Notes under the pieces: generated by a model | What the model was told of the DNA's origin: nothing | What the model saw: the letters and a program-made list of their open reading frames with translations, nothing else | Databases searched by the model: none | Translations under genes and position numbers: made by a program | Part shown: in pieces, positions 1,362-61,669 of the stretch | How the letters are laid out: every line of letters starts with the position of its first letter | Numbering within the stretch: the stretch's first letter is position 1 | NCBI GenBank assembly: GCA_964497315.1 | Contig: CAZCCH010000004.1 | Location: forward strand, 18,307 to 82,306 | Reading direction: 5' to 3' | Origin: an uncultured Planctomycetia bacterium | GTDB taxonomy: Bacteria > Omnitrophota > Gorgyraeia > Taenaricolales > CAZCCH01 | Length of the DNA: 64,000 nt

Positions 1362-3376
<2,015 letters not shown>

Positions 3377-3402: not shown

Positions 3403-4434
3403 CTATGGTTTTATCTCTCTTAAAAACTTGGCAGCATCTTCTGGTGAAGTTGAGTTAATATAAAACCCAGTACCCCACTCAAAACCTGCAACCCTTGTTA
3501 AGCGTGGTATGATTTCAATGTGCCAGTGATAATCACGTTCTATTGTTGTCCAATATCCAGTCTTCGCCTTAGTTCTAAAAGGTGCTGTATGCAAAACAAA
3601 ATTATATGGTACATCCTTTATGAGCCTGGATAATTTCAACAAGGCCAATTTTAAAACTTTTGCAAGTTGTTTTGTCTGTGCCTCTTCCATCTTATGAAAA
3701 TCACAAGAATGTTTTGTGGGTAATATCCACATTTCAAAAGGAAATCTGGAAGCAAAGGGAGCAAGTATCGCAAATCCGTCTTGTTCGGTTATTAGGCGCT
3801 CACCACTTTTTAGCTCTTGCTTTATTATATCGCAGAAAATGCAACGTTCTTTATAATCAAAGTACTGCCTTGCACCATTTAGTTCTTCTTTTACCCGCTT
3901 TGGGTTAACTGGCATAGCCATTAATTGAGAACGGGCATGTTCAATACGGCCGCCACCTGCAATCCATCCGTAATTTTTAAACAAGAGCACGTACTTTAAT
4001 CTCTCATCTTTTTGAAGCTCTGTAATTCTGGCAATATAGGTTTTAATTATTGACTCTACCTGTCCAATGGGCAATTCTGCAAAGTTTGAGGTGTGTTCAG
4101 GTGTTTCTACAATAATTTCATGAGCACCCACGCCATTTATGACATCATACATCCCAACACCCTGTCTATCTAATTCACCTTCTTTTTCCAACATGGGCGC
4201 GATACTTGGGACCACTCTTACATTCCAACCTGGTTTATTGGGTTTTGAGTTAGGTTTTCTTATTGCGAATATCTCAGGTGGAGTATGTTGTTCATTGTGT
4301 TCACAGAAAGGACAAGGCCCTGGCCATGGCCTCTGCTTTTCTTTTATGAGTTTATAATCGTTAGGTCGTCCCGCGCGTTCTGTGGCGATTATAACCCATC
4401 TGCCTATTATCGGATCTTTTCGTAATTGTGGCAT
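3403..4434 (-). CDS. GalT-like HIT-family nucleotidyltransferase, tandem paralogue 2.
   Basis: The product is 343 aa, with CPFCEHNE, an HARSQLMAMP triad and the N-terminus MPQLRKDPIIGRW. Its domain layout is colinear with the 2378..3376 product. Confidence 0.75.
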   Translation of the reverse strand: MPQLRKDPIIGRWVIIATERAGRPNDYKLIKEKQRPWPGPCPFCEHNEQHTPPEIFAIRKPNSKPNKPGWNVRVVPSIAPMLEKEGELDRQGVGMYDVINGVGAHEIIVETPEHTSNFAELPIGQVESIIKTYIARITELQKDERLKYVLLFKNYGWIAGGGRIEHARSQLMAMPVNPKRVKEELNGARQYFDYKERCIFCDIIKQELKSGERLITEQDGFAILAPFASRFPFEMWILPTKHSCDFHKMEEAQTKQLAKVLKLALLKLSRLIKDVPYNFVLHTAPFRTKAKTGYWTTIERDYHWHIEIIPRLTRVAGFEWGTGFYINSTSPEDAAKFLREIKP

Positions 4435-4452
4435 TTTAAATATAGTTATTAG

Positions 4453-5394
4453 TTAATTGCCTAATGTGTCCCCTGTTTTTAAATCATGGCCTGCCAAAAA
4501 TGCAGCAATATCCATTTGCTTTGAGTTAGCAGGTTGCAATCTATTTATCTCTAAAACCTCAGAACCTGTTGCGATCTGAAGTTTATTATCCTTTTTGGAA
4601 ACCACTTCACCCGGCTTTTTACCTTCTGCTTTTATTGCACTTATTCTTGCCTCCCAAACCCTAAGAAGCTTACCCTTTAAAAAAGTGTGTGCAATTGGCC
4701 AAGGAATAAAAGCCCTAACTCTGTTGTGTATTTGCCTGGCAGACATCTTCCAGTCAATTAATCCATCCTGCTTTTTTAATTTAGGTGCGTAAGTTGTCTT
4801 ACTTTCATCCTGCGGAGTGAAGGTTGCGCGTCCTTTTTCTATGGAATCTATTGTTTCTAACAGCAAGTCTGCGCCTGCCTGAGCTAATTTTTCTGATAGG
4901 CTAAGATAAGTATCGGTTTCTTTTATGGGAATTTGGGGACTCTGGGCAATAATGTCACCTGCGTCCATAGTTTGGTTCATTCTTATAATGCTAAGTCCTG
5001 TGGCCTTCTCACCATTTACTATTGCCCAGTGCATAGGGCTTGCACCCCTGTATTTTGGAAGAAGGGAACCATGCATATTTATACAAGATTTATCCGGTAA
5101 AGTCAATACTTTATTACATAATATATGACCATAAGCTATAACACAGAAAAGATCTGCCTTATATGCTGCTATATTTTCAATGAACTTTCCAATTGAAGGA
5201 TCTGGTGGTTGATATATATCTTTTATGCCATGTTTTAACGCCTCTATCTTTATTGGGGGTTGGGATAGCTTCAGATGGCGTCCTTTTTTTCTATCAGGCT
5301 GAGTTACTACAGCCAAAACCTCATGTTTGGAGGCTACTAGTTTTCTCAAGCTTGGAATGGCAAATTCTGATGTCCCAAAAAATATTACTTTCAT
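4453..5394 (-). CDS. fmt: Methionyl-tRNA formyltransferase.
   Basis: The product is 313 aa. It has the formyltransferase core HGSLLPKYRGASPMHWAIVNGEKATG followed by the Fmt C-terminal domain. Confidence 0.9.
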   Translation of the reverse strand: MKVIFFGTSEFAIPSLRKLVASKHEVLAVVTQPDRKKGRHLKLSQPPIKIEALKHGIKDIYQPPDPSIGKFIENIAAYKADLFCVIAYGHILCNKVLTLPDKSCINMHGSLLPKYRGASPMHWAIVNGEKATGLSIIRMNQTMDAGDIIAQSPQIPIKETDTYLSLSEKLAQAGADLLLETIDSIEKGRATFTPQDESKTTYAPKLKKQDGLIDWKMSARQIHNRVRAFIPWPIAHTFLKGKLLRVWEARISAIKAEGKKPGEVVSKKDNKLQIATGSEVLEINRLQPANSKQMDIAAFLAGHDLKTGDTLGN

Positions 5395-7397
5395 TATGTT
5401 GGATCCACGTCTATTGTTAAACGAACTCCTGAATACCTAGGGCACTGTTTTAATGTCTGTTTCAGGTAAAAGCGTGCATCTTTGACATCTTTTGCCCTTA
5501 TGAAGACATTCCATCTATAGTGCATCTTTAATCTTGGGATAATTGCAGGTGCGGGACCCGTTATGTGTATTTTTTTATTAATGGATTTGGCCTTTGCGAC
5601 TACTGATCTTAGAAGACTGGCAAAGTTAGAGGCTTCTTTGCTAGTCTTATCATGGTTTCTCCCCTTTACCGTAATGCATATTATATGGGTAAAAGGAGGA
5701 AGTTTCAAGCTTTTTCGCTGCAGAATCTCTTTTTTATAAAATTCTGCGTAATCATGTCGACTGGCTGCTGCTATGCAATAATGCTTTGGTGTATAGGTTT
5801 GCACTATGACTTTTCCTTGCACGTGCCCCCTACCTGCCCTGCCTGCCACTTGAGTCAAAAGGCTAAATGTCCTTTCATCTGACCTAAAATCAGGTATGTG
5901 TAAAGCAGTATCTGCTGATACAACACCCACTAGGGCAACCTTTGGGTAATCAAGGCCCTTGGCAATCATTTGCGTTCCTATAAGAAGTTGAATTTTGCCT
6001 TTTTGGAAATCCTTCAGTATTTTTTCATGACTACCTCTTTTTCGTGTAGTATCAGTATCCATCCGTTCAATTTTTGTATCTAAAAAGAGCCTGTGCATCT
6101 CAGATTCAACCTTTTCTGTACCCATTCCAAAATAGTTTATATGTGCACTCTTACATTCAGGGCACATATGCGGAGGAGCTATTTTATAATTGCACCAGTG
6201 ACATATTAGTTTTTTATCGCAAAAGTGATATGTAAGTGTCGTACTACAATTTTTACACTTAAGTACAAACCCACATTTTTTACAATGCATATATGTAGAA
6301 AACCCCCTCCTATTTAAAAAAAGGATCGCTTGTAAACCTCTCTCTAAAATATCCCTTACATTTTCTTCTAATATTTTTGAAAATATAGAGAATTTCTTTA
6401 GGTTGTATTCATTTTTCATATCGATTATTTCCACCTTCGGTAAATCTTTTTCTTTTATTCTTTCTGTAAGGCGGGCAAGTTTATAAATATTCTTTTCTGC
6501 CTTATAATAAGACTCCAAAGATGGAGTGGCACTGCCTAATATCACTACTGCCTTTGATAACTTCGCCCTGTAAATAGCAACATCTCTAGCGTGATACCTT
6601 GGTATGTCTTGCTGTTTATATGTATTCTCATGTTCTTCGTCTACTACAATAAGCCCGATATTTTTCAATGGTGCAAAAATAGCGGATCTTGCACCAACAA
6701 CAATTCTTGCCTTTTGCTCTTTAATCTTCTTCCACTCAGTAAATCTTTCACCGGCAGTTAAACGACTGTGTAAAATTGCTACCTCTTCTTGAAACCTTGA
6801 CTTAAATCTTTCAACAGCCTGAGGGGTAAGAGATATCTCAGGAACAAGCACAATGCTTGAGCGCCCTTGAGCTAATGCAGAACCTATTGCCTGTAGGTAT
6901 ACCTCTGTCTTCCCGCTACCGGTTATGCCGTGTAGCAAATAAACATGATGTGTGTTGGTGTTTAAATCATTGCAGATTGCCCGCAACGCCCTATCTTGCT
7001 GAACAGTAGGTTTTAAATCCCTTGTTGGTTTAAACTGGCCTATTGCGCTAGGTTTTCTTTGCTTTATGTTGCTTTTTCCCTTCTTTAGCCCCCCTGGAAT
7101 AACCGCCTGTATTGCTTCACCCCAACTGCAAAAATAATACTGTGAAATCCATTTAGTCAACTCGAGCAGTTCTTTATCTAAAATAGGTTCCTCATCAATA
7201 ATTGAATGAATAGGTCTGGTTTGCTTTAACACAGTTTTATCTGAAAGGCCTACTATATAACCCACTAATTCTCTTGTTTTAAAAGGTACCCATACCCTCT
7301 TGCCAATTGCAGCAAAGTCAACTAATTCATCTGGTATGGAATAATCAAAAGGGCCTTCTACGGGAAGACCCACTACAACTTTAGCAAACCTTTTCAT
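5394..7397 (-). CDS. priA: Primosomal protein N' (PriA helicase).
   Basis: The product is 667 aa. It has a Walker A GITGSGKT, a DEEH box (VVDEEHENTY) and a Cys-rich zinc finger CKKCGFVLKCKNCSTTLTYHFCDKKLICHWC inside the helicase core, which is PriA-specific. Confidence 0.9.
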   Translation of the reverse strand: MKRFAKVVVGLPVEGPFDYSIPDELVDFAAIGKRVWVPFKTRELVGYIVGLSDKTVLKQTRPIHSIIDEEPILDKELLELTKWISQYYFCSWGEAIQAVIPGGLKKGKSNIKQRKPSAIGQFKPTRDLKPTVQQDRALRAICNDLNTNTHHVYLLHGITGSGKTEVYLQAIGSALAQGRSSIVLVPEISLTPQAVERFKSRFQEEVAILHSRLTAGERFTEWKKIKEQKARIVVGARSAIFAPLKNIGLIVVDEEHENTYKQQDIPRYHARDVAIYRAKLSKAVVILGSATPSLESYYKAEKNIYKLARLTERIKEKDLPKVEIIDMKNEYNLKKFSIFSKILEENVRDILERGLQAILFLNRRGFSTYMHCKKCGFVLKCKNCSTTLTYHFCDKKLICHWCNYKIAPPHMCPECKSAHINYFGMGTEKVESEMHRLFLDTKIERMDTDTTRKRGSHEKILKDFQKGKIQLLIGTQMIAKGLDYPKVALVGVVSADTALHIPDFRSDERTFSLLTQVAGRAGRGHVQGKVIVQTYTPKHYCIAAASRHDYAEFYKKEILQRKSLKLPPFTHIICITVKGRNHDKTSKEASNFASLLRSVVAKAKSINKKIHITGPAPAIIPRLKMHYRWNVFIRAKDVKDARFYLKQTLKQCPRYSGVRLTIDVDPT

Positions 7398-9186: not shown

Positions 9187-10089
9187 TTATTTTTTTATAA
9201 TTTTAGCAATTTGGCGGATGTGCTCAGGGGTACTACCGCAACATCCTCCGATGATGTTAATCTTTAGATTTAATAATTCCGGCAAGACCTTTGTGAAATC
9301 TTCTGGTGTTTCGGTAAAAATAGTTTTATCATTTTCCAGCTTAGGCATACCTGCATTTGACTGGGCAATAAGAAATATATCGTTTCTTTTTAACTCATCT
9401 AGTCGTTTTCTCATTAATTCTATGACTTTTACCATTTGTTTTATGCCGCATCCACAGTTTGAACCCATTATCTTAACACCCATATCAAGCATCTTATCGA
9501 CTGCCTCATCAGTAGAAACCCCCATCATTGTTTTACAGATGCCCGGTTGAAATGTCATGCTAGCTATCACTGGAAACTCGCTGCCAATGTTTAAGGCGGC
9601 TTCTTTGGCAGCCATAAAGGCTGCTTTTAATTCTCCTAAGTCAGCCATCGTTTCAATAATAATACCATCTACACCGGCTTGTACAAGTATCTCTGCTTGG
9701 TTTTTAAATACGTCAAAAAGTTCTTCGTACTTTAAATTTCCCACGGGTTCTATAAATTCCCCTGTTGGACCTATATCACCAAGCACATAGGTAGAATCTC
9801 CTGTTACTTCTTTAGCTAATTGCACAGCTTTCAAATTAAAGTCACTAAGTTTACCCTCAAGTCCTGCACGTTTTAACTTAAGGCTATTTGCTCCAAAGGT
9901 ATTTGTTGTGATAATGTCACACCCTGCATCAACATAGCTTTTATGGATAGATTTTATAACCTCAGGATGTGATAAATTCCACTCTTCTGGAAAATCACCT
10001 GTCTTTAGGCTTTGCTCTTGCAGGGCAGTACCCATAGCACCATCACAAATTAATACTTCTGACTTTAGCTTCTCTAATAAAGGTTTCAT
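9187..10089 (-). CDS. Stand-alone homocysteine S-methyltransferase (Hcy-binding) domain protein.
   Basis: The product is 300 aa. It has the N-terminal ICDGAMGTALQ and the C-terminal zinc-binding GGCCGSTPEHI motifs of the S-methyl_trans (MetH N-domain / MmuM) fold. Confidence 0.75.
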   Translation of the reverse strand: MKPLLEKLKSEVLICDGAMGTALQEQSLKTGDFPEEWNLSHPEVIKSIHKSYVDAGCDIITTNTFGANSLKLKRAGLEGKLSDFNLKAVQLAKEVTGDSTYVLGDIGPTGEFIEPVGNLKYEELFDVFKNQAEILVQAGVDGIIIETMADLGELKAAFMAAKEAALNIGSEFPVIASMTFQPGICKTMMGVSTDEAVDKMLDMGVKIMGSNCGCGIKQMVKVIELMRKRLDELKRNDIFLIAQSNAGMPKLENDKTIFTETPEDFTKVLPELLNLKINIIGGCCGSTPEHIRQIAKIIKK

Positions 10090-10661: not shown

Positions 10662-11297
10662 TTAGGCTTTAACAGCAATAATATTTAAATTCAAAGCCAG
10701 CTCTTCTCCTGGAAATACTTCATTGTTTATATCTTCTATTTGAAACCCGTTGCGGCCTAACAATTCTTTTATAGTAGCTTTGGTAAAAATATCCTTATGC
10801 AGTTGATAGGGTGAATTCTTTAGCGTGGGGTCACCATGGGTCAACCTATAAACCTCAAAAAGGTCAAATCTTTCACTGGAAATGCCCTTTTCTTGTTTAA
10901 TGTAGGCATCAATAATGGCATCGAAATCTGGGAGCCATTTAATAATAAGACGGCCGCCTTTTTTCAGTATCCTGTGAAAATCCTTTAGTATCTTATCCTG
11001 ACTATATCGGTAGAAATGCTCAAAGACAGCCTCCAACCTTACTTCAGAAGCTATGTCGGAGGGTACAAGATGAAGGTCTTCTGAGACATCCAACGCCGCA
11101 TCTGTGCCTTCTGTAGGGACTATATCTATATTGACGTAGTCTTTTAGCTTTTTATCTCCGCAGCCAATGTAGAGCTTCACGCCATCTTTCAATAAATCTT
11201 CTATCCTGGTCCTTAAAATCCTTTTTCTCCTGCACGAAATCCATGTCCACCTTCGCCAGATCTGCCTGGAATTTTTTGCTATCTTTTTATGCAACAT
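10662..11297 (-). CDS. Class I SAM-dependent methyltransferase.
   Basis: The product is 211 aa. It has the glycine-rich motif I LYIGCGDKKL and motif-post-I acidic residues, in a Methyltransf_11/23-like layout. Confidence 0.6.
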   Translation of the reverse strand: MLHKKIAKNSRQIWRRWTWISCRRKRILRTRIEDLLKDGVKLYIGCGDKKLKDYVNIDIVPTEGTDAALDVSEDLHLVPSDIASEVRLEAVFEHFYRYSQDKILKDFHRILKKGGRLIIKWLPDFDAIIDAYIKQEKGISSERFDLFEVYRLTHGDPTLKNSPYQLHKDIFTKATIKELLGRNGFQIEDINNEVFPGEELALNLNIIAVKA

Positions 11298-11344
11298 GGC
11301 TGCACCTTTTGGTTTTTGTCATCATTTTCATATTTGGCTCCATT

Positions 11345-12820
11345 TTAAAGGGGTAATGTTCCTTGGTTACTACTATATTTCTTTCGTATCGCAGGTAATA
11401 CTTCCTCACGGGTTCGCTTTAAATCATGGATTGTGTCATTATCATTCCAGAGAAGTCCAGTTATGCTTTCGATGCACAGCCTGTGCCCTTTGAACACCAG
11501 ATGTTCAAATGCTTCCATAAGGTACGCCCAGGCATTGCCTTCTCTTATTATTCTGTCTATCTCATTTATCAAAACCGCGGCCCCCCATCGGTTAAACTTG
11601 GCAATACCGATGAATTCACCGTAGGCCTTATCGGAAGATATGCATTTATGCTTCGGGAAGGGCAAAGAATAGTAGTCTTCCGGAAGGGTCATTATATTCC
11701 CTGCCGCGCAGATCTTTTCATCTTCCTCGTCACAGGCCTTTTCGTCTGCCCCCAGCACAATTTCATTAGGGTTTCTGATAATTTTTTTCAATATCTCGGG
11801 CTCAAAAATTATATCCCCATATATGACTATAAAACCCTTATGTAAAAATTCGCGTACGAGCCAAAACGTAATTAACATATTTGAACTCTCGTACCAGGGA
11901 TTATATACTATATTGATATCCGTCTTCTTTAGTTTCTCGTAAACAAAATTACGCACAAGGGCATCTCCCTTGCCAGTTGCGATGATAATATCCTCATCGT
12001 GAATATTGCATTTTTTAAACGCATCTAACTGTGTTTCTAAGATAGTTGTTCCTCCTGCATCCACTAAGCAGGTGTGGTGGGTTGCAGTCAAAGCACCCAT
12101 CCCCAAAGAAGGACCGGCAGAAAGAAGCACTATCTTGTATTTATCCTCCAGTTCTCTTATTATTTTTTTTACTATATCTACAGAGTGCTGGGAATACTCG
12201 CCGATGGCCGTTTCTTCGGAAAGCATGATAAAATCGGAACCGTCGGAAATAGCGTTGGCTATATCTACTACTTCTGACTTTGTAGGTTCTGATTTCTCTA
12301 CCATGGACAGAAGGAACTCCGTAGCTACAATTACCAGTTTCCCCTGTCTATTGCATTTACGTATAATCCTCTTCTGCGCATGCGGCAATTTCTCTATGCC
12401 TATTGCCGTAGCCAAATCTCCCCTGTCTATCATCACTACATCAGAGAAAAAAATAATGTTATCTAAATCTTCCAGCGCCTCGGCAGTTTCTATTTTGGCT
12501 ACAATCTTTATGTCAAGTCCTTTGAATTGATTCCTGAATTTTTCTACATCCTTATGGTGCTTAACATATGACAGGGCCACATAGTGTGGATTTATTTGTT
12601 TTGTTAGCCTAAGCAGATCTTCAAATGATAAGTTGTTAGTCCGAGTCTTTTTTCTTTCAGTAGGCAAGTCTAATAATAACTGATACCCCCATGCATCTTT
12701 TATTTTAGCTGCCAGGCTATGTATTTCTTCTTTCGTTCCAAAAGCACAGTTTATCCTGCCCACATCTATTCCCTGTAGTTTTTCTGTGTAAGGACTAACA
12801 GTTGAAATTATTTTGACCAT
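11345..12820 (-). CDS. Fusion protein: pyruvate-kinase-like TIM-barrel (PEP-binding) domain (N) plus LicC/MobA-like nucleotidyltransferase domain (C).
   Basis: The N-terminal ~240 aa align to the PK barrel (IVAKIETAEALEDLDNII..MIDRGDLATAIG; VIVATEFLLSM; PTKSEV.DIANAISDG.DFIMLSEETAIGEY, compared with PK MLSGETAKGKYP). They lack the PK B- and C-domains. The C-terminal ~240 aa carry an NTP-transferase glycine loop LLSAGPSLGMG and a LicC-like NPWYESSNMLITFWLV....IVIYGDIIF segment. Confidence 0.55.
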   Translation of the reverse strand: MVKIISTVSPYTEKLQGIDVGRINCAFGTKEEIHSLAAKIKDAWGYQLLLDLPTERKKTRTNNLSFEDLLRLTKQINPHYVALSYVKHHKDVEKFRNQFKGLDIKIVAKIETAEALEDLDNIIFFSDVVMIDRGDLATAIGIEKLPHAQKRIIRKCNRQGKLVIVATEFLLSMVEKSEPTKSEVVDIANAISDGSDFIMLSEETAIGEYSQHSVDIVKKIIRELEDKYKIVLLSAGPSLGMGALTATHHTCLVDAGGTTILETQLDAFKKCNIHDEDIIIATGKGDALVRNFVYEKLKKTDINIVYNPWYESSNMLITFWLVREFLHKGFIVIYGDIIFEPEILKKIIRNPNEIVLGADEKACDEEDEKICAAGNIMTLPEDYYSLPFPKHKCISSDKAYGEFIGIAKFNRWGAAVLINEIDRIIREGNAWAYLMEAFEHLVFKGHRLCIESITGLLWNDNDTIHDLKRTREEVLPAIRKKYSSNQGTLPL

Positions 12821-12825
12821 AACTT

Positions 12826-13983
12826 TCAGCCTTTCCCAGTGAGAATGTCAGTAATACACCGAGCTGCTATATCTGAAGACTGCCCGAAGGCATATATACT
12901 CTCATTCCTAAGCTGGGCAATGCGTTGTCTATTGGTGTCAGTATGTGCAATTAACCTGGAGATAACCTTAGGCACCATATCTAGTTTGTCCGGAACAACT
13001 ACCTCTCCTATTTCAGAACGGATAGAAACCTCTAACGGCTCAAGTCCCAATTCTTTATAATTGGGGTTTTTGGCCGCAACAGGTACATCAATAGAAATAA
13101 CCGGTTTCTCAGTACCAAAGGCATATTCAAGAGCAACACCTGAGTAGTCGCATATCAGACAGTCAGCACGAATCAGCGAATCATCAGTGGCTACGGATTT
13201 CTCCAAGATGAAATGCGGGTTTGATCCAAATTTAAAAACAAGCGAGGCTATTAACTCCGGAGAACGCTTTGTGGTTTCTGGATGCGGCCTCATAATTACT
13301 GCAAAACCTGCTTTTAAGAGTATGTCGGTCAGGCGCTCACCGCAGCTTTCGAGAAGATTACTATCTCCCCACGAAGGCGCAATAAGAACCATTGTCTTTT
13401 CCTCCGAAGATAAATCCTTTGCCGATAAGTATTTTTGATACGCAGCATAGATTCGTTCCAGCCGGTAATATCCACCTTCAAGGAGCTTTTTGGATTTTAG
13501 CCCAGCAAGTTCCTCACGCCTGCGAATTTCTTTCATGTGGTAGGGGCCAGGGCACAATATATAGTCATAATGATCATAAGACCCTTCGCGGAATTTCATA
13601 TGCGTGCTGGCGAGGGAGTGAAAAATATAAACATACTGGACCGGATTGTATGAGCGTTTAAGGTGAAACTGATTGAGGTCAGTCAGGGTAATAACAAAAA
13701 CCCTGCAATTTACAAAGAGCATAAAAACAGCAAGTAATTTGTCTAGGTAAAAGGCATTTATCTTCTCTGTCTGTTTTTCAAAAATCGGGTCGTTAAAATC
13801 TGAGGTAATATAACATAGGTTTCGACTGTATTTTTCCGTAAGCTCTGCAATTACACCCTCAAAGTAGGGGTAATAACCCTCGTGTTCTGAATAAAAAATT
13901 ATTTCCTTTTTCTTTATCGGTGTCCTGAAGAAAAACCTACAGAAATCTGCAATTTCTCGAAAAAAATTGGATGTGCGATACAA
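12826..13983 (-). CDS. TagB/TagF-family CDP-alcohol (CDP-glycerol-type) phosphotransferase.
   Basis: The product is 385 aa. Glyphos_transf-like motifs include VLIAPSWGDSN (compared with ILYAPTWR) and IMRPHP (compared with KPHP). The size and layout match teichoic acid primases and polymerases. Confidence 0.6.
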   Translation of the reverse strand: MYRTSNFFREIADFCRFFFRTPIKKKEIIFYSEHEGYYPYFEGVIAELTEKYSRNLCYITSDFNDPIFEKQTEKINAFYLDKLLAVFMLFVNCRVFVITLTDLNQFHLKRSYNPVQYVYIFHSLASTHMKFREGSYDHYDYILCPGPYHMKEIRRREELAGLKSKKLLEGGYYRLERIYAAYQKYLSAKDLSSEEKTMVLIAPSWGDSNLLESCGERLTDILLKAGFAVIMRPHPETTKRSPELIASLVFKFGSNPHFILEKSVATDDSLIRADCLICDYSGVALEYAFGTEKPVISIDVPVAAKNPNYKELGLEPLEVSIRSEIGEVVVPDKLDMVPKVISRLIAHTDTNRQRIAQLRNESIYAFGQSSDIAARCITDILTGKG

Positions 13984-14062
13984 TTCTCACAACTCCTTTT
14001 TTATGGTATTTTATCCTTCAACTTCTATTTCTAAAAAAGACAGCATGTCACAAGTGTGTTTT

Positions 14063-15247
14063 CTATTTAAAAATATTCCCTTTCTGCCTACTCTGTTTTT
14101 TTATCCACTGGCTAATTTCTGGCCTCATGAATTCTTCAGGCGGAGTCATTCCTTCGCCAAACATCTTGCGTATCTTTGTCCCACTTATCTGGATTCTGCA
14201 GGCCTGGGGGTGAGAACAAGTTTTCTCTGTAGCTACTGCTCTACACTTTTTGCAATAAAATGGGCCGTTGAACCGCAACGGAGCAATGCCCAAGTCAGTG
14301 AAATTATCAAAAATTTTATGGGCCGCGTAGGTATCGTAGTAACCTTTTACTCCGGCATGATCCCTTCCTATAACTATGTGCGTGCAGCCGTAATTTTTCC
14401 TTACGATCGCATGAAACAGTGCTTCCCTTGGACCCGCAAACGCCATCTTCATATTAAGCGGCGCCAAAAGCACCCTTGCCTTGGGGTAATAATGTCGGAT
14501 AAGAAGCCTATAACTTTCAAGAACAAGAGTGGGAGAAAAATCGCCTTCTTTTGTCTGGCCAACTATGGGGTTTATGAATAAACCGTCCACAAATTCAAGC
14601 GCGCACCTCTGTAGGTATTCGTGTGCCCTGTGAACGGCATTTCTCGTATGAAACGCACAGATTGTCTTCCAGCCAAGCTTTTTAAAAATCTTTCTCGTCT
14701 GATGCGGGTCCATTATCATGTCCCTGAAGGGCAGCTTCGGCTTGTTTAGCAATATAATCTCACCGCCTAAAAGCACATCGCCCATTGCATCTACGGCTGC
14801 AACGCCGGGATGATCCGGATTTGCTGTACCATAGACAGCTTCACACCTCTGGGCTTTTTCATGTACGAATTTTTCTTCTACAAAAATCACCGCCACGGCT
14901 TCGTTTTGCGTGCTTGTAATAAGTAATTGTTGCCCGGACTTTATTCCGGAGGCATCTTTTTCGCTGACCGAGAACGTTACGGGTATGCTCCAAGGGGTTC
15001 CGTCTGAAAGTCTGCTTCTTTTAAGTACCGAAACATAATTCCGCTTTTTCATAAATCCGGTAAGCGGGCTAAAACCACCAACAGCAATCTGCTCTATATC
15101 AGTAAGTACATTGGTATCAACAGCAATTTTTTGCAGCTTTGCAACGTGTGCTAAAATTCTCTTTCGCTTTTTGCCTGCGGCAACTCTGTTTACTAATATG
15201 TTCTTCATGTCACATAAAAGGCCTCCCGTCCATATCCTTGAATTCAT
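14063..15247 (-). CDS. sat: Sulfate adenylyltransferase (ATP sulfurylase).
   Basis: The product is 394 aa. It has GFSPLTGFM, AFHTRNAVHRAHE (a QTRN-HRAH-type motif with Q replaced by H) and IGRDHAGV motifs. There is no fused APS-kinase domain. The start codon is uncertain; an internal Met (MKNILVNR) is an alternative. Confidence 0.8.
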   Translation of the reverse strand: MNSRIWTGGLLCDMKNILVNRVAAGKKRKRILAHVAKLQKIAVDTNVLTDIEQIAVGGFSPLTGFMKKRNYVSVLKRSRLSDGTPWSIPVTFSVSEKDASGIKSGQQLLITSTQNEAVAVIFVEEKFVHEKAQRCEAVYGTANPDHPGVAAVDAMGDVLLGGEIILLNKPKLPFRDMIMDPHQTRKIFKKLGWKTICAFHTRNAVHRAHEYLQRCALEFVDGLFINPIVGQTKEGDFSPTLVLESYRLLIRHYYPKARVLLAPLNMKMAFAGPREALFHAIVRKNYGCTHIVIGRDHAGVKGYYDTYAAHKIFDNFTDLGIAPLRFNGPFYCKKCRAVATEKTCSHPQACRIQISGTKIRKMFGEGMTPPEEFMRPEISQWIKKQSRQKGNIFK

Positions 15248-17285
15248 CCTCGGGAATACCTAGGATTTTCAATATCGTGGGTACCACATCAACTATTGCC
15301 GGATTTGCAGCTTCTATCTTTCTGTTGGTAAAAAGAACCCCGGGCAAAAGGGACGGATCAGAGAGATGGTCGCCGCTCCAGGCCTTTTTGTTATCTTCAA
15401 TTATTTCCTCAGGCACGCTGCCTAAAGCGGTCTGCCAGGAAGAGCGGTAACCGATGTTATATCCAACAAGCAAGTCCGGCGCCTCATTTATATAAGGCCC
15501 CCAGAAAATCTCGTCTCTGTTATAGACTTTGTTTATTACATTGCTGGCGAATTTTTCATCATAAAGGGAGGTCAGCCTATCTGCGATCTCTTTTTTTATT
15601 TTTTGCGTCTCGGCCCCGGGCCGTACGCACCCCTTTGCCTCCCGGCCGATCTGATTAACAAAAATTTCACCAAAACCTACGCTGTAGGCTGTGGTACGAG
15701 ACCAGTCTACATCCTTAAAAAATTCGCCTCCTTTAACCGCGGCTGGATCTTCCAGGAAAAGAAACCCATTTTCCCTAAGCCATGTGTTCAAATGAACCGA
15801 TCTCCGAAACGTCTTAAATCCATGGTCAGACAAAACTATCAAAAGCGTATCCTCATCCGTCTTCGCAAACACCCTGCCTAGAATATTATCCATCCTCTCA
15901 TACATCTTATCAATCACACCCGAGTAAACAACAGCTAATTCTTCGTCATATGCCGGATGCTGAGGGTCTATAAAACGCCAGAATGCATGCTGAATGAAAC
16001 TGGGCGAGTCAAGATAATAGAAAAAAACGCCTTTTTTGAAACGCTCAAGTTCGATATCAAGCATTTGTTGTTTTTCCTCAATAATCATATCGGCCTGTTC
16101 TAAAAACGCAACTTCATCAAGTTTATTTTCATTTAGCGCCCATGTATCATGAGGCATGCCCAAGGTATGATAGAGGCCCAGCCTATCTGCGAGCTCTTTT
16201 GAATAACCAGCAGGGTATGATATCGCAAAAGGTGGATCCCGGGGGTCAAAATTGATGGGGGAGATATAAAGTTCGAATTCCGGTGTTATGCTCTTGAGGT
16301 AAAATTTACATATCCCCTTGACCCTCTTGAAAAAATTAATTTTAAAAGTAAAGGCCTGCCATTGACTCCACTGTTTAGGCCTAAGCATGAACTGGTTTCC
16401 TCCAACATCAACAGTTGCAGTTTGGGCCTGTTCATCTATAGCCACCTTCATGGGTATTATTATATCATTTGCTTTTCTTAAAGATGTGTCCACGGGGCCG
16501 GATAAATAGGTATTTATATTAGCTCCTCTTTTGGTAACTTTAATGAGTCGACCTCCAATATCCTTGCCTTTTTCAATGTCTGCTGTGGTATAAAAAGAGG
16601 ATGTACCCATAGTCCCCCGTATATCCGGCACGCCCATACCTGAAAGCAAGCGGCCGTAAACCTTATCAGGTGGAAATGCATTGGGGCAACACAGAAGGAC
16701 TGTGGGAATTTTATATTTACGCGTAATATTCCAGAAAGGCGTACCGCCAGCTACCCTCTTAAGCTTCTTTGTATCTTTATCAACCCGGCTGAAAGCCAAA
16801 TATGGCATGTATGTATTTGGGTCACGTTTTAGGAAACCATAGGCACCGTGTTTACCTGCATTGGATCCGGTAGCAAAGTTGGTCCAGGCCACTAGCGATT
16901 CCGCAGGATAAGAAGTAGCTAAACGCGCATAAGTACCTTGCTCTTTCAGTTTTTTGAAATTGGGAAGCTTGCCTTCTCCCATCAACCGTTCCATAATCTC
17001 AGGCTCCAGACCATCCAACCCAATTATGACTATTTTTTCTTTGCAGCCCGCCACTTCTTTTGTGATATTTATATAAAACACAACGCCGGCAATAACAGCC
17101 GTTAGAATTAACAGCCATAACAGCTTCTTTCCCTTGAGGAAAAATCTTAAAATGCGTCTCGCCCAGAAAAGCAGCCCGCCAAGGAAACCTATTATGACTC
17201 CCAGGATAATCGAACCCATGGTAAAAAACGGCAGTCCCACTCCTGGATCTATGTATCCAAAGTTTATTAGTCTAAATATCTCCAT
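15210..17285 (-). CDS. Membrane-anchored alkaline-phosphatase-superfamily enzyme, type I phosphodiesterase / nucleotide pyrophosphatase (NPP)-like.
   Basis: The product is 691 aa. Two N-terminal hydrophobic helices are followed by the PF01663-type IVIIGLDGLEPEIMERL opening and metal-site-like residues. The gene overlaps sat by a few codons. Confidence 0.6.
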   Translation of the reverse strand: MEIFRLINFGYIDPGVGLPFFTMGSIILGVIIGFLGGLLFWARRILRFFLKGKKLLWLLILTAVIAGVVFYINITKEVAGCKEKIVIIGLDGLEPEIMERLMGEGKLPNFKKLKEQGTYARLATSYPAESLVAWTNFATGSNAGKHGAYGFLKRDPNTYMPYLAFSRVDKDTKKLKRVAGGTPFWNITRKYKIPTVLLCCPNAFPPDKVYGRLLSGMGVPDIRGTMGTSSFYTTADIEKGKDIGGRLIKVTKRGANINTYLSGPVDTSLRKANDIIIPMKVAIDEQAQTATVDVGGNQFMLRPKQWSQWQAFTFKINFFKRVKGICKFYLKSITPEFELYISPINFDPRDPPFAISYPAGYSKELADRLGLYHTLGMPHDTWALNENKLDEVAFLEQADMIIEEKQQMLDIELERFKKGVFFYYLDSPSFIQHAFWRFIDPQHPAYDEELAVVYSGVIDKMYERMDNILGRVFAKTDEDTLLIVLSDHGFKTFRRSVHLNTWLRENGFLFLEDPAAVKGGEFFKDVDWSRTTAYSVGFGEIFVNQIGREAKGCVRPGAETQKIKKEIADRLTSLYDEKFASNVINKVYNRDEIFWGPYINEAPDLLVGYNIGYRSSWQTALGSVPEEIIEDNKKAWSGDHLSDPSLLPGVLFTNRKIEAANPAIVDVVPTILKILGIPEDEFKDMDGRPFM

Positions 17286-17300
17286 ATCGTCAATCCTGTT

Positions 17301-19199
17301 TTATTGTAAATATCCAAGTCCTTGTAATTGCCGTTTTGTTGTTTCGTCAATCTTCACCGACTCCGTAGAACCCTCCTTGGACTTAGAACCCATTTTTTCT
17401 GAAAGTATCATATTTTCAAAAATATAATTAACTATCAGCCCGTGACACATCTCGGTGGCCTTCGGCTCTTTGCCGATAAGATTATTCTGTTCTTGAGAAT
17501 CTATATCTATATTGTACAACTCTCGTTTTTTACTCCATAGGTTATATATGTATTTCCATGGCGGGATCCTCACGGAAACCAGATGGCTGTCAGGAAGCAT
17601 GAATGTAGGTCCTAATTCACTGAAGGCTGGCCTTGGGCTTGCCTTTTGCGGTTCCTGCGACAAAATCCCCTGCATATCCATGCCCTGCATGATATCTTCC
17701 GGCTCCAGATCCAGGACAGACAATATAGTAGGCATAATGTCTATACCCTGCACCTGTTCTTGAAGCTTTAGGCCGGAAGGAAAAACTCCAGGCAATCTCA
17801 TTACAAGAGGTATCTTTATATCATCTTCATATAAGAATTCCCCGGGTTTTATCTCATCTAACTCATCCAGACTCCTACCATTATCCGCACTAACAATAAT
17901 AAGGGTCTTATCCTCTATTCCCAGCTTACGCAACTTTTCCATCAATAGACCTATATGATAATCTGTATACCAAACCTGAACCTCATACATAGAAACTTCC
18001 GTTTTGCTGGGATGTGCAGAACCTACTTCATCGGCATATACAAAATCGGTATTTGATAAATCGTGCCTTATATGTGGTCCGTGAACATCCATATAATGAA
18101 GATATAGGAAGAAATTTTTGTCTTTGAATTTATCTATCCAATTAATGGCTTCGGCGGTAAGTAAATCCGCCGTTGGATAACAGCTGGGAGGAGTTTTTAA
18201 TAGGTCTGAATGCGTCCCCAGCTTATAATACAAGTCGTACCATCTAGATGCATCTCTCTCTATAAGGTTTACATAAAAATCAAAGCCCTGGTCAAGATTG
18301 AACTGCTTCGAAACCCATGGATCGGTCATAAAAGCGCAGGTTGCATATCCATTTGCCTGCAATACTTCAGCAATAGTAGTCATCGACTCAGGAAGACCTT
18401 TATTTTCATCGACTACACCGTGAACTGAGGGATAGGTGGAGGTAAAAAGAGATGGAACTAAGGCGTGCGTCCAGTTGGTCTGGGTTATGGCATTTAAAAA
18501 AACCGTTCCTTCCCCTGCAAGAACATCTACGTTAGGACTTAAGCGCTTTAATTGTCCGTAAGCTCCTAATTTAGCTGGAAGTAATGAATCTACAATTATC
18601 AGAATTACGTTTAAGTCTTCACCTCGCGCAAATTCCGAAAAGGCCTTTTTAAAAGAAAATCCGCGCTGTACATATCCTGACGCCAACCACTCCCCAGATA
18701 GAAACAGCACTAGGATAATGCTTATGGTTATAATTCTAATGGGGCGGTTGCTTTTTGAAATAATTTTCAATAGCATAAAAAATATAAGAAAAAACAACAC
18801 CGCATATACAACCAGAAGAAAATCCGCAACCCAATGAAAAAGATAGTGTCTGTATCCGAAAAATATATTACTAAGCCACCAGTCAACCGCATACGCGGCT
18901 GCAAAGGAGAAAAACAAGGTAAGGTATATGGATATGAGCCGACCCGTAGAAACTTTTTTCTTGTAAATTAGTCTGGCCGCAACAAATATTAACCCAAATA
19001 CAATCCCGCTAAGGCCGCAAAATATGCCGTAAATCGCCAGGTTGGCTAAAAAGGGGTGTGTGCCTTCTGTAAAATAGAGGTATGGCGAAGCAAATAGCAC
19101 CTTAACCACGCTAATAAAAAACGCGAATGCAACCCCCGTCAAAAGGCCCACGCCTACAGCTTTAATAAAGTAATCTATTTTACTGCGGTATGCCACCAT
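17301..19199 (-). CDS. LtaS/EptA/MdoB-like membrane phospho-transferase (sulfatase fold, Thr nucleophile).
   Basis: The product is 632 aa. About five N-terminal TM helices precede an extracytoplasmic sulfatase-fold domain starting ILIIVDSLLP. The sulfatase signature position reads THALVPS...YPSVHG, with T in place of the formylglycine Cys/Ser. LtaS and phosphoethanolamine transferases have the same substitution. Confidence 0.6.
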   Translation of the reverse strand: MVAYRSKIDYFIKAVGVGLLTGVAFAFFISVVKVLFASPYLYFTEGTHPFLANLAIYGIFCGLSGIVFGLIFVAARLIYKKKVSTGRLISIYLTLFFSFAAAYAVDWWLSNIFFGYRHYLFHWVADFLLVVYAVLFFLIFFMLLKIISKSNRPIRIITISIILVLFLSGEWLASGYVQRGFSFKKAFSEFARGEDLNVILIIVDSLLPAKLGAYGQLKRLSPNVDVLAGEGTVFLNAITQTNWTHALVPSLFTSTYPSVHGVVDENKGLPESMTTIAEVLQANGYATCAFMTDPWVSKQFNLDQGFDFYVNLIERDASRWYDLYYKLGTHSDLLKTPPSCYPTADLLTAEAINWIDKFKDKNFFLYLHYMDVHGPHIRHDLSNTDFVYADEVGSAHPSKTEVSMYEVQVWYTDYHIGLLMEKLRKLGIEDKTLIIVSADNGRSLDELDEIKPGEFLYEDDIKIPLVMRLPGVFPSGLKLQEQVQGIDIMPTILSVLDLEPEDIMQGMDMQGILSQEPQKASPRPAFSELGPTFMLPDSHLVSVRIPPWKYIYNLWSKKRELYNIDIDSQEQNNLIGKEPKATEMCHGLIVNYIFENMILSEKMGSKSKEGSTESVKIDETTKRQLQGLGYLQ

Positions 19200-20228: not shown

Positions 20229-21668
20229 TCAATTAAGCGTAGCCTTTCTGGAATTCAATTTATTAACTATGGACCTTAAATTCTTTCGATAATAAAAGTT
20301 ACACATTGATATGGGGTGATGTTGTATATGATATTTTTTAAAATTTCCCTTATTTAAAGGTCCAACGATCTCTTTTTGGATTTCGTGGGTTAATTCAATA
20401 AACCTATCTGAAGAAATCTTGGTAAAGTTTTGTGTACAATCCGTACAATCATTCCATTCGATTTTATAACCTCTATTCAAGAGTTCTTTATAGGCACATG
20501 TTCCAGGCAAAGGCCAAAACTGGTTGAAATGAGCAAAATACGGCCTTATAGATTTAATAAAATTTGCAGACAGCATAAAATCTTCTTCTGTTTGGTCAAC
20601 ATAACCCTTGATCATATTTGCCCTAAAATTTAAACCTACGTCATGGGCCGCCTTTGCTGCTTCGCAATACCTTTCTACATTAATGTTCTTATTCATCCTA
20701 TTTAGTTCTTGTTGTGAACCTGATTCAAAACCGCATTCAACTAATACACAACCCGCGCTTTTCATTAATTTCAAAATTTTTGCTTTTGCCGCAACAGCTG
20801 TAAGCTGACAAATCCATTTGATCTTTTTATGCAAACCTTTTTTCTTAATCATTTCGCATATAGTCTCTGTTCTTTCCACATTGCTCAAAAACATATCGTC
20901 AGCAAAATAAATATAATCAACTTTGTAAGAGCAGATAATTTTTTCCATCTCTTCTAAGACATAATGTGGAGAATGATATCGCACCTTTCCTGGGAACATT
21001 AATGGGCCTGCACAATAATGGCACCTCCTAACACAACCGCGAGAAGAAAATATTGTTGTATGCTTACCTAGGAGATGTCGTTCTTCAACAGGTTTCAAAT
21101 AAAAGTTCATATTCAATAAACTTCTATCTGGAATAGGAATCTTATCTAAATTTTGTATCATTTCCCTTTTGCCAACAGTGTAGAAATCTTCACCCTTCCT
21201 GCTCCATACTCCAGGCATATCAAAAGAGGGAAGGTTATTGACTATATCTAACATGGTCATCTCTCCTTCCCCATCAACTACTAAGTCTATGTCTGGACAG
21301 CACATCAATGTCTCTTTTGGCTCAGCAGTAGGATGTGGTCCTCCTACAATATTAATAACATTAGGGTGAACTCGTTTAATCTTTTTAGAAAAATGTATAA
21401 CATCATACATAAGAGGTGTAGTAGCACTAAAACCGACAAGTTGAGGCTTAAATGATTTTATTCTTTCTAAAAGCTCTTGGTCTGTTGCGGCCAAGTCGTA
21501 ATTGTTCTTAATCAATAATTCATTCCTATCAGCTATCTTTACCTTATGTCCGTTATTTTGCAAGACTGTGGCAATATAAACTAATCCAAGTGGTGGAAAT
21601 GGGTGGTAACCATGAGAGAATTTATCTATTTTTTGAAGGACCAAAGGGTAAATAAAGAAAACGTTCAT
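20229..21668 (-). CDS. B12-binding-domain radical SAM enzyme (class B).
   Basis: The product is 479 aa. An N-terminal cobalamin-binding Rossmann region (PLGLVYIATVLQNNGHKVKIAD) is followed by the CxxxCxxC cluster motif SRGCVRRCHYC. Confidence 0.8.
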   Translation of the reverse strand: MNVFFIYPLVLQKIDKFSHGYHPFPPLGLVYIATVLQNNGHKVKIADRNELLIKNNYDLAATDQELLERIKSFKPQLVGFSATTPLMYDVIHFSKKIKRVHPNVINIVGGPHPTAEPKETLMCCPDIDLVVDGEGEMTMLDIVNNLPSFDMPGVWSRKGEDFYTVGKREMIQNLDKIPIPDRSLLNMNFYLKPVEERHLLGKHTTIFSSRGCVRRCHYCAGPLMFPGKVRYHSPHYVLEEMEKIICSYKVDYIYFADDMFLSNVERTETICEMIKKKGLHKKIKWICQLTAVAAKAKILKLMKSAGCVLVECGFESGSQQELNRMNKNINVERYCEAAKAAHDVGLNFRANMIKGYVDQTEEDFMLSANFIKSIRPYFAHFNQFWPLPGTCAYKELLNRGYKIEWNDCTDCTQNFTKISSDRFIELTHEIQKEIVGPLNKGNFKKYHIQHHPISMCNFYYRKNLRSIVNKLNSRKATLN

Positions 21669-60938: not shown

Positions 60939-61669
60939 CTCACCTTCCTAAATAATAGCACCATCTCTGAAAAATCCTGCCTAAATAATGAATTAAAAGA
61001 ACTTGGGATTTTATTTGCGGAAATAAAAAGGTTATATCCACAAAATGGGCATATCGTGCGCATTGGCCTTCTCTCTGATCTATTGAAAACAATCTGTTTC
61101 AGACGCATTGTCAGATCATGCAATTTAAAACGTGGTGGTTCGCAGTACTTGAAATCCAAAAGTTCAAAATTTGGAAAAATTTCCAATATACTATCCTTGG
61201 TAAAACTCCTTGCGTGCCAGTTTAAATGAAATACCTCACCACATCCGGGACACTTTGTGGTGTTTAAGGTTATATCCTCGTTGTTGGGTACATTAATAAG
61301 TATATATTTGCTACTTAGTGCCTGCACCTGACTTATGACCCTGGATAAAAGCTCATCGCTTAAATGTTCTAGGATATCGCTCAGTAAAATTAAATCAAAT
61401 GTGCCCTTCTTGAACGGGAGATTCTCTGCGGCAGCCTGTAATTTCTTTGCTTGTACATGTATCAATGCCTCTATGCTAAAATCGATAGCGACAACATCAA
61501 ATCGTTTTGCTAATGGATTACATATGATACCGTCACCGCACCCAACATCAAGTACGGTTTTCACATCATCCGGTATAGTAAGGTTAATAGCATTTAACCT
61601 GCTTACCTCATGATCACCTATCTCTGCAGCGCTTTTCCCATCGCGAGGCAAGTCATAGTATGTCAGCAT
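60935..61669 (-). CDS. Class I SAM-dependent methyltransferase.
   Basis: The product is 244 aa. It has the motif I VLDVGCGDGIICNPLAKRF and C-terminal CxxC pairs (CPGCG...CPFCG). Confidence 0.6.
   Translation of the reverse strand: MLTYYDLPRDGKSAAEIGDHEVSRLNAINLTIPDDVKTVLDVGCGDGIICNPLAKRFDVVAIDFSIEALIHVQAKKLQAAAENLPFKKGTFDLILLSDILEHLSDELLSRVISQVQALSSKYILINVPNNEDITLNTTKCPGCGEVFHLNWHARSFTKDSILEIFPNFELLDFKYCEPPRFKLHDLTMRLKQIVFNRSERRPMRTICPFCGYNLFISANKIPSSFNSLFRQDFSEMVLLFRKVR

Follow-up and report, generated by a model that had tools for sequence, protein, structure and literature searches.

A conserved cassette of ATP sulfurylase, a pyruvate-kinase-derived protein and a TagF-like transferase in Omnitrophota: a possible route of sulfation without PAPS

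In the textbook view, biological O-sulfation depends on 3′-phosphoadenosine 5′-phosphosulfate (PAPS). Here, we describe a gene for ATP sulfurylase (Sat) that appears to belong to a different setting. It lies on the minus strand, at positions 14063 to 15247, of a stretch of 64,000 nucleotides (hereafter, the window) of contig CAZCCH010000004.1, from an uncultured bacterium of the Omnitrophota. Its product shares the PUA_2 and ATP-sulfurylase fold signature with homo-oligomeric Sats (PF01747, TIGR00339) and with the Sat-CysC PAPS synthases but, unlike them, it has no cysC, cysH or other assimilation genes nearby, and Sats of its type are always partnered with a pyruvate-kinase-derived domain. 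We propose, as a tentative reading that falls somewhat short of an even chance, that the gene island to which it belongs (10662-19199) sulfates an envelope glycan or lipid without adenosine 5′-phosphosulfate (APS) kinase and PAPS sulfotransferase, and that a TagF-like enzyme encoded beside Sat uses APS directly.

Two other described systems are close to this locus. One is that of the CDP-glycerol and CDP-ribitol transferases TagF and TarL (PF04464; PDB 3l7i, 8va1), with which the window protein shares the GT-B-like TagF fold and family-type motifs. The chemistry that we propose would also match, with the attack beyond the alpha-phosphate and a nucleoside monophosphate (NMP) as the leaving group. 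By contrast, the partner is Sat here and a phosphonate pathway in relatives, and the group proposed to be transferred is a sulfuryl rather than a phospho-alcohol. The other system is phosphonate tailoring, in which the Fom1/PntC-type route makes the CMP-activated phosphonates CMP-hydroxyethylphosphonate (CMP-HEP) and CMP-aminoethylphosphonate (CMP-AEP) (PMC6697681). The TagF-like family and a homologous nucleotidyltransferase (NT) domain are common to both, but the window lacks phosphoenolpyruvate (PEP) mutase (Ppm), phosphonopyruvate decarboxylase (Ppd) and alcohol dehydrogenase (ADH), Sat stands in for the activating enzyme, and the catalytic Arg and Lys are missing from the NT domain.

The open reading frame (ORF) at 14063-15247 translates to 394 amino acids and matches PUA_2 (PF14306, 155.6 bits, E 1e-45) and ATP-sulfurylase (PF01747, 287.1 bits, E 9e-86) in Pfam, and it scores above the curated cut-offs of NCBIfam NF003166 (481.7 bits against 387) and TIGR00339 (362.2 against 322.95). 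Gene callers place its start at Met14 (base 15208), which gives 381 amino acids (P0001); this is probably the true start, and the overlap with the upstream gene thereby disappears. On one side, it is flanked by a Glyphos_transf gene (12826-13983) and, on the other, by genes of the Phosphodiest (15210-17285) and Sulfatase (17301-19199) families. Thus, Pfam and hydropathy bear out the initial annotation, which had set sat between a TagF-like gene and two genes for membrane proteins of the alkaline phosphatase (AP) superfamily, and the translation agrees with the HTRN that it had read in place of QTRN. The codons concerned (14621-14650, minus strand), which cover the RNP loop and the HXXH motif, read HTRNAVHRAH where QTRNP[IV]HRAH is usual, so that Gln is replaced by His, and the Pro following RN by Ala, while Arg and Asn are kept. 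Set against the RNP-loop pattern Q-X-R-N, H-T-R-N is a subfamily state of what is still a member of the Sat family. The protein also retains HRAH (HXXH), IGRDHAGV (the GRD loop), GQTKEGD (GxxKxxD) and CKKC...CSH, a zinc site of three Cys and one His. In the structure of the A. vinosum Sat, the Gln side chain, an Arg and the backbone NH of an Ala hold the sulfate oxygens of APS, the Gln through a hydrogen bond (PMC3779200). By these ligands, the substitution falls in the anion site and, except for the Gln, the window Sat keeps all the sulfate, phosphate and ribose ligands named in that work.

The distribution of the variant bears on its meaning. When the Sat family was surveyed by exhaustive search of 50%-identity representatives and the best 150 were considered, His was found in 51 and Gln in 84, with His in every one of the 25 that have a recognisable N-terminal pyruvate kinase (PK) domain; three of these 25 are triple fusions of PK, Sat and APS kinase. 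Among the best 120 matches at the level of 90% clusters, 111 have QTRN and nine HTRN, these nine being the nearest relatives of the window Sat. Additional His-type Sats were gathered from genome and metagenome collections through a degenerate DNA pattern for the motif, and most of those retrieved are single proteins of 720-790 amino acids with a full PK barrel, including the B domain, ahead of Sat. In these collections (loci are designated here by L numbers), an APS-kinase gene follows PK-Sat in 14 loci, and Sulfotransfer_1/3 genes flank it in five (L010, L013, L014, L024 and L035). As His-type Sats feed APS kinase, they would make APS from sulfate and, as the Sats of the orthologous modules L044, L045 and L046 (see below) are of the QTRN type, Gln and His seem to be interchangeable in the same context. 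Consequently, the proposal of the initial annotation that the enzyme might act on another anion or nucleotide is not borne out, since His is common among the nearest representatives and tracks the fusion to PK. The exchange of Gln for His is, judging from these comparisons, a lineage marker of PK-associated Sats with no change of substrate, and we infer that the window Sat makes APS from ATP and sulfate because, in its His-type relatives, APS kinase is either part of the same protein or encoded next. In the neighbour-joining (NJ) tree of Sat, the window clade is not sister to the PK-Sat fusions, so one or two origins of His are both possible.

Some observations made during this survey are of interest in themselves. 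PK A and B domains fused N-terminally to a His-type Sat were seen in L010, L011, L014, L015, L021, L022, L024 and L029-L043 (for instance, proteins P0276, P0286 and P0351), and PK-Sat(-CysC) loci occur in polysaccharide clusters of Omnitrophota, Planctomycetes, Saccharibacteria, Bacteriovoracaceae, Alphaproteobacteria and Deltaproteobacteria. PK-Sat(-CysC), in which APS kinase usually comes after Sat, is a widespread PAPS-synthase architecture, seemingly undescribed, as neither the fusion nor the pairing turned up in a search of the literature on PK with sulfate adenylyltransferase. Other matches to the HTRNxVHRAH DNA pattern (L012, L016, L017, L018, L026, L020, L023, L027 and L028) encode no Sat according to tblastn, and those in Xanthomonas hortorum, Salinibius, Fimenecus, a Clostridia metagenome-assembled genome and L028 were dropped as fortuitous or unrelated. 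The Xanthomonas hortorum matches probably reflect a conserved unrelated gene rather than chance, because five independent records (L012, L016, L017, L018 and L026) match the pattern.

The partners that would be expected for PAPS-dependent sulfation are missing from the window. A Pfam scan of all its 52 ORFs of at least 100 amino acids returned no APS_kinase (PF01583), Sulfotransfer_*, PAPS_reduct or CysD/N match, and it showed no assimilatory cysH, cysI/J, cysK or cysDN. Likewise, tblastn of the 64 kb found nothing with four CysC proteins from related loci (best E 0.58) or with five sulfotransferases from sister loci (best E 0.046). The absence of a cysC-like kinase and of a PAPS sulfotransferase, as well as the location of sat away from cysteine-assimilation genes, had both been noticed in the initial annotation and stand after these searches. 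Furthermore, neither cysC nor a sulfotransferase gene was found in approximately 189 kb, duplicates included, of related module loci.

What these loci do share is a set of genes. Every close relative of the window Sat has a PK-derived gene and a Glyphos_transf gene as neighbours. The window, L044, L045 and L046/47 (from a Woesearchaeota archaeon) all carry TagF-like, Sat and PK-like genes, to which L044, L045 and L046/47 add a small transmembrane (TM) gene and a multi-TM gene of the Sulfatase family (AP-like). The genes of the module frequently overlap by 4-11 nt. Thus, Sat, the PK-derived protein and the TagF-fold protein form a conserved set that is often translationally coupled. The PK-NT fusion of the window (see below) is 68-76% identical to those of L044 and L045. 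A second lineage of TagF-like proteins, 20% identical to that of the window, also adjoins Sat and PK-like genes (L001/L019/L042, L002, L003 and L007). In L003, Sat and PK-NT are 70% and 45% identical to those of the window, but the TagF-like protein is of the other type, so the two TagF types are seemingly interchangeable partners of Sat. As the window Sat is closest to that of L003 (70%), while its TagF-like protein and PK-NT are closest to those of L044 (69% and 76%), whose Sat is of the QTRN type and only 43% identical, the parts of the module seem to have been swapped between lineages with the module kept intact. Among nucleotide-activating enzymes, Sat alone is shared by all module loci. 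Neither L001 nor L002 (about 20 kb each) encodes a nucleotidyltransferase (NTase), and NTase, cysC and sulfotransferase genes are all absent within 15-21 kb from these two loci and from the Woesearchaeota island. No description of a Sat and TagF-like cassette was found in the literature on Sat with glycerophosphotransferases or on Omnitrophota with sat. What is new here is the company that Sat keeps, the gene itself being an ordinary member of a sizeable Sat subfamily.

In the window, this company also stands out in composition. The six contiguous genes at 10662-19199 have the six highest GC contents at third codon positions (GC3) among the 52 window genes (0.40-0.45, against a mean of 0.333 and a standard deviation of 0.039), sat being at the top with 0.451. 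These values therefore suggest that the six genes were acquired as one unit by horizontal transfer.

The TagF-like protein (12826-13983, minus strand) matches Glyphos_transf (PF04464) with 45.2 bits, against a cut-off of 22.1. Its AF2 model (pLDDT 90.3) has TagF (3l7i) as the top Foldseek match (E 1e-11, TM-score 0.59), while a search of PDB sequences with a profile of 24 members of its family gave no match at E ≤ 1. The family yielded 892 matches, the best 120 of which are all at least 55% identical to the window copy, which would place this copy in a large, slowly evolving family. Its named sources are Omnitrophota, Patescibacteria, Chloroflexota, Bipolaricaulota, Dehalococcoidia, candidate division CSSED10-310, Nanoarchaeota and Woesearchaeota; a scan of viral contigs revealed no relatives. 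The window protein is about 20% identical to the TagF-like proteins encoded beside the nearest relatives of its Sat.

The genomic context was inspected for eight members of the family, the window copy included. Apart from the window, the Sat-linked contexts are L044, L045 and the archaeal L046/47 (TagF-like proteins 58-69% identical to that of the window), and one of the eight members is an orphan. The other three, which are 58-61% identical to the window copy, lie in a phosphonate context (L048:8001-13907, L049:4059-9149 and L050:5153-10941), where the neighbouring genes encode a PEP mutase that is a separate protein in L049 but carries a fused NTase in L048 and L050, together with phosphonopyruvate decarboxylase, another NTase and an iron-type ADH (Fe-ADH). 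By analogy with known pathways, these genes presumably supply CMP-activated phosphonate donors, and the TagF-like family beside PEP-mutase genes is a candidate transferase for attaching such phosphonates to glycans. Because the family adjoins Ppm-NTase, Ppd, NTase and Fe-ADH genes, its usual donor is probably an NMP-activated small tetrahedral oxyanion, isosteric with APS. We found no description in the literature of a TagF-like family tied to phosphonate clusters.

Within the family, H122 (in the F-H-S motif), H128, APSWG, RPHPE and DYSG are invariant; by resemblance of motifs, H122 and H128 may correspond to H444 and H584 of TagF. All four Sat-linked members have Phe131, whereas among the other 116 this position is Tyr in 98% and Phe in none, and further changes specific to the Sat-linked clade cluster near the invariant His122 and His128. 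No TagD/TarI-type cytidylyltransferase (CDP-glycerol/CDP-ribitol synthase) was found in the window, where NTase-like sequence is confined to the altered domain joined to the PK remnant. Pfam found no PEP_mutase or thiamine pyrophosphate (TPP)-enzyme domain in the 52 window ORFs, so the locus does not class as a Pnt cluster.

The third element of the module is encoded in the window by a fusion gene for 491 amino acids (11345-12820, minus strand; Pfam PK and NTP_transf_3). This gene was overlooked, as was the link between TagF-like proteins and phosphonates, in the initial annotation, whose list of neighbours was otherwise right for Sat, the TagF-like gene and the AP genes. The N-terminal half (12143-12820) is a remnant of the PK A domain (E 2.6e-44, covering model positions 182-328 only). 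Alignment with PK structures shows that AKIE, IDRGDL, ATEFLLSM, PTKSEV and SEETAIG are conserved, so that the A domain retains its catalytic Lys, Glu, Asp, Thr and Ser/Glu. By contrast, alignment with the full PK-Sat fusions shows that the B (lid) domain, which binds ADP, has been cleanly deleted, and PK_C is absent; with A-domain residues and no lid, the protein is not a full PK. It also differs from pyruvate kinase in its fusion to an NTase-like domain and its location in a glycan cluster. The loss of the lid is in keeping with a pathway in which, with no APS kinase taking part, ADP is not produced any more.

The C-terminal half (11348-12142) is a LicC/PntC-like NT domain, whose nearest PDB sequence is LicC (1jyk, E 3e-4) and which shares 25-35% identity with the NTase found as a separate protein in phosphonate clusters. 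As a whole, the fusion mirrors the Ppm-NT fusion of such clusters, in which a PEP-binding barrel is likewise joined to a LicC-like NTase. In the window, the Arg of G-x-G-[ST]-R-L has become Gly, and the following Lys has become His. Presumably, these two residues normally hold the NTP triphosphate in the superfamily and, because they are replaced, the domain is unlikely to work as an ordinary NTP-using transferase. PK-derived proteins thus occur in three forms in these loci: full A and B domains fused to Sat (PAPS-type loci), a lid-less A domain fused to NTP_transf_3 (window, L003, L044 and L045) and a stump of 181 amino acids that ends after the sixth strand (L001, L002, L006 and L007). Additionally, the PK of the Woesearchaeota locus (L046) is stand-alone, keeps the B domain and has no NT domain.

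Upstream of sat, the island encodes two membrane proteins of the AP superfamily. The first (15210-17285, minus strand; PF01663, E 1e-30; GC3 0.438) belongs to the Phosphodiest family and has two hydrophobic N-terminal segments by hydropathy; its N-terminal sequence reads MEIFRLINFGYIDPGVG... and carries a YIDPGxG segment. Here, this segment makes up the N-terminus of the Phosphodiest-family protein, while in related modules a Y-I-D-P-G-T/V-G membrane segment forms a separate gene of 64-73 amino acids (L044:10298-10519, L045:6248-6466 and L046:10306-10500).

The second protein (17301-19199, minus strand; PF00884, 'Sulfatase' family, E 1e-41) has an LtaS/EptA-like architecture, with five hydrophobic N-terminal segments by hydropathy. 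Like LtaS and EptA, it has an AP-superfamily domain after a multi-TM N-terminal block, and it shares its Pfam family with true sulfatases, but the formylglycine motif C/S-x-P-x-R is lacking and Thr occupies the nucleophile position (NWTHALVPS; the region reads SWSMPSH in L046 and DWTLPAF in L022). Because this motif is absent, the sequence argues that the protein is not a classical formylglycine sulfatase, and it scores far under the LtaS and YejM equivalog cut-offs. Homologues follow the module in L046/L047 (29% identity), in L044 and, weakly, in L045. In another locus, L022 (8 kb), PK-Sat and APS kinase are directly followed by a soluble member of the Sulfatase family (3862-5520), also with a Thr as the presumed nucleophile, and no Sulfotransfer gene was found there; this protein may be an AP-superfamily enzyme acting on APS or PAPS. 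To our knowledge, AP-superfamily enzymes with a Thr nucleophile transfer phosphoryl and not sulfuryl groups.

In the route that we propose, Sat would form APS from ATP and sulfate. The TagF-like enzyme would then take APS, and the conserved His in its F-H-S motif would activate a hydroxyl of the acceptor for attack on the sulfur, with AMP leaving. For its relatives, the group expected to be moved is a phosphonyl or a phospho-alcohol, the donor being CMP-activated and CMP the leaving group, and the anhydride of APS has the geometry found in CDP-glycerol and in CMP-phosphonates. The PK-derived domain would descend from PK-Sat(-CysC) enzymes, where the role of PK is presumably to regenerate ATP, and PK-NT probably supports Sat and has kept the ability to bind PEP and a nucleotide. 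Finally, the membrane AP-superfamily proteins might act on the product outside the cytoplasm, either passing the group on or editing it. Direct use of APS was among the options raised in the initial annotation; it is favoured by the recurrence of the module without cysC or sulfotransferase genes in the 189 kb mentioned above, which falls short of a proof. A more specific version of the idea, which we hold to be slightly less likely, is that the TagF-fold protein is a PAPS-independent O-sulfotransferase that evolved from CMP-phosphonate transferases and is carried in a mobile Sat/PK cassette common to Omnitrophota and DPANN archaea; Patescibacteria, Chloroflexota and other phyla also have relatives of the TagF-like protein.

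Several points weigh against direct use of APS. We know of no O-sulfotransferase that uses APS, and none was found in the literature on APS-dependent sulfotransferases. APS is very scarce at equilibrium, so an enzyme using it directly would need very tight binding or channelling. The C-terminal motifs of the TagF-like proteins that presumably bind the nucleotide are identical in Sat-linked and phosphonate-linked members, and such an unchanged half would be odd if the donors differ (AMP- and CMP-activated, respectively). The four Sat-linked members cluster in the NJ tree with a bootstrap of only 41%, and the Phe131 signature appears to be the firmer evidence for this clade. Moreover, the scheme leaves the conserved PK A-domain residues and the altered NT domain without a role. 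Lastly, the search covered 64 kb only, so that cysC and a sulfotransferase gene may be located elsewhere in the genome. If they are, the island could follow the ordinary PAPS route, with Sat providing APS for a CysC from another locus, a sulfotransferase that is unlinked or has escaped recognition, and the TagF-like enzyme merely sharing the operon and performing a conventional phospho-alcohol or phosphonate transfer from a CDP- or CMP-activated donor made by the NT domain or elsewhere. Partners elsewhere were also an option in the initial annotation; we consider this route unlikely. It agrees with the use of CysC and Sulfotransfer enzymes by sister lineages, with the nucleotide-binding motifs shared with phosphonate-linked relatives and with the fusion of the PK remnant to a domain homologous to phosphonate-cluster NTases. 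However, it does not account well for the joining of two unrelated TagF-like lineages, each to Sat and PK-like genes that often overlap, nor for the Woesearchaeota island, L001 and L002, where none of the enzymes that it calls for is found nearby. An NT domain stripped of its triphosphate-binding Arg and Lys would be a poor source of the donor, and the six genes move together as a compositional island.

A different division of labour within the island is also conceivable, and we regard it, in its two versions taken jointly, as unlikely. In one of them, PK-NT would be a PEP-dependent kinase acting on APS or AMP, which would replace CysC by making a PAPS-like donor or would recycle AMP; in the other, the AP-like protein would be the true sulfotransferase, with the TagF-like enzyme loading sulfate on a membrane lipid and the five-TM enzyme transferring it extracytoplasmically, as LtaS and EptA do with phospho-groups. 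A kinase would be consistent with a remnant that keeps all the PEP- and metal-related catalytic residues of the A domain, with the ADP lid lost, and with an NT domain that keeps its fold and has lost its triphosphate ligands. However, L001-type loci have only the PK remnant of 181 amino acids, without the last barrel strands, and the Woesearchaeota PK retains the B domain and has no NT domain. As for the membrane version, the window has AP-like TM proteins in common with L044, L045 and L046, pairs of PMT_2 and GT2 genes, typical of lipid-carrier pathways, are nearby, and L022 has its soluble Thr-type protein after PK-Sat-CysC; against it, L001-type loci have no AP-like gene, and the Thr-type enzymes that we know of move phosphoryl groups. 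Last, the Q-to-H Sat could activate another oxyanion (phosphoramidate, phosphonate, phosphate or molybdate) or use another nucleotide, with the module installing the resulting group. The replaced Gln does contact the APS sulfate (PMC3779200), and the TagF-like family is otherwise linked to phosphonate chemistry. In spite of this, we judge this explanation very improbable, as His-type Sats are fused to APS kinase and lie beside PAPS-type sulfotransferases, QTRN Sats occur in orthologous modules, the window Sat keeps the Arg and the Ala backbone together with its GxxKxxD, HXXH and GRD elements, and neither Ppm nor an alternative source of anion is present among the window ORFs. There is a precedent for such a recruitment in Cj1415 of C. 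jejuni, a sulfate-activation enzyme turned to phosphoramidate chemistry. A MeOPN-like route, in which the PK-like protein would make phosphoramidate and Sat would adenylylate it, was dropped given that His-type Sats are partnered with APS kinase and sulfotransferases.

The surroundings of the island are those of a surface-polysaccharide locus. All window genes are on the minus strand, and the overall GC content is 37%. From 63.7 kb down to 8 kb, Pfam scans of the ORFs show a single long envelope-glycan cluster, with GT2, GT4 and GT9 glycosyltransferases, Wzy_C, PMT_2, an ABC exporter, sugar aminotransferases and dehydrogenases, two AsnB-like amidotransferases and several methyltransferases. 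Beyond the cluster come udg, priA, fmt, two GalT/HIT-like genes, gap and pgk; among named proteins, those most similar to the PGK are all from Candidatus Omnitrophota (65-67% identity). The last gene of the island (10662-11297, minus strand; GC3 0.410, among the six highest) encodes a weakly methyltransferase-like protein of 211 amino acids (Methyltransf_23, E 1e-3, below the cut-off), for which no counterpart was found in related loci. Scans for promoters and terminators between 8 and 22 kb gave no more sites than shuffled sequence and are uninformative on the limits of the operon.

Some other genes of the window deserve mention. A D-glucuronyl C5-epimerase C-terminal domain (PF06662, E 5e-34) is encoded at 61663-62628; epimerases of this type belong to the synthesis of heparan-sulfate-like glycans, and its presence fits a sulfated uronic-acid polymer. 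Next to it, a radical-SAM and SPASM protein of 376 amino acids (62601-63731) has the architecture of anaerobic sulfatase-maturating enzymes, for which the five-TM protein at 17301-19199 is not an obvious substrate because it lacks the C/S-x-P-x-R target motif. Four B12-binding radical-SAM enzymes are encoded in the glycan cluster (20229-21668, 26471-27877, 27890-29311 and 46997-48442). Similar genes lie near the modules in L001, L044, L045 and L050, and their products are 25-29% identical to those of the window; with such identities between loci no orthology can be claimed, and they were dropped as Fom3-like partners. A homocysteine S-methyltransferase domain (9187-10089; PF02574, E 4e-71), encoded in the glycan cluster beside a GmhB-like HAD phosphatase, is in an unusual place and might serve the methyl supply of cobalamin enzymes. 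Between fmt and gap, there are tandem paralogues of the GalT/HIT family (2378-3376 and 3403-4434), weakly similar to Ap4A phosphorylase, DUF4921 and DUF4931; the GalT/HIT superfamily includes APS:phosphate adenylyltransferases.

If the proposed use of APS by the TagF-like enzyme is true, the cassette of Sat and a TagF-fold protein without APS kinase would be a second route of O-sulfation, and the TagF-fold transferase would represent a new sulfotransferase fold. Metagenomic surveys usually take sat in Omnitrophota, in the Candidate Phyla Radiation (CPR) and in DPANN archaea as a marker of sulfur energy metabolism or assimilation; many such sat genes belong instead to surface-decoration cassettes.

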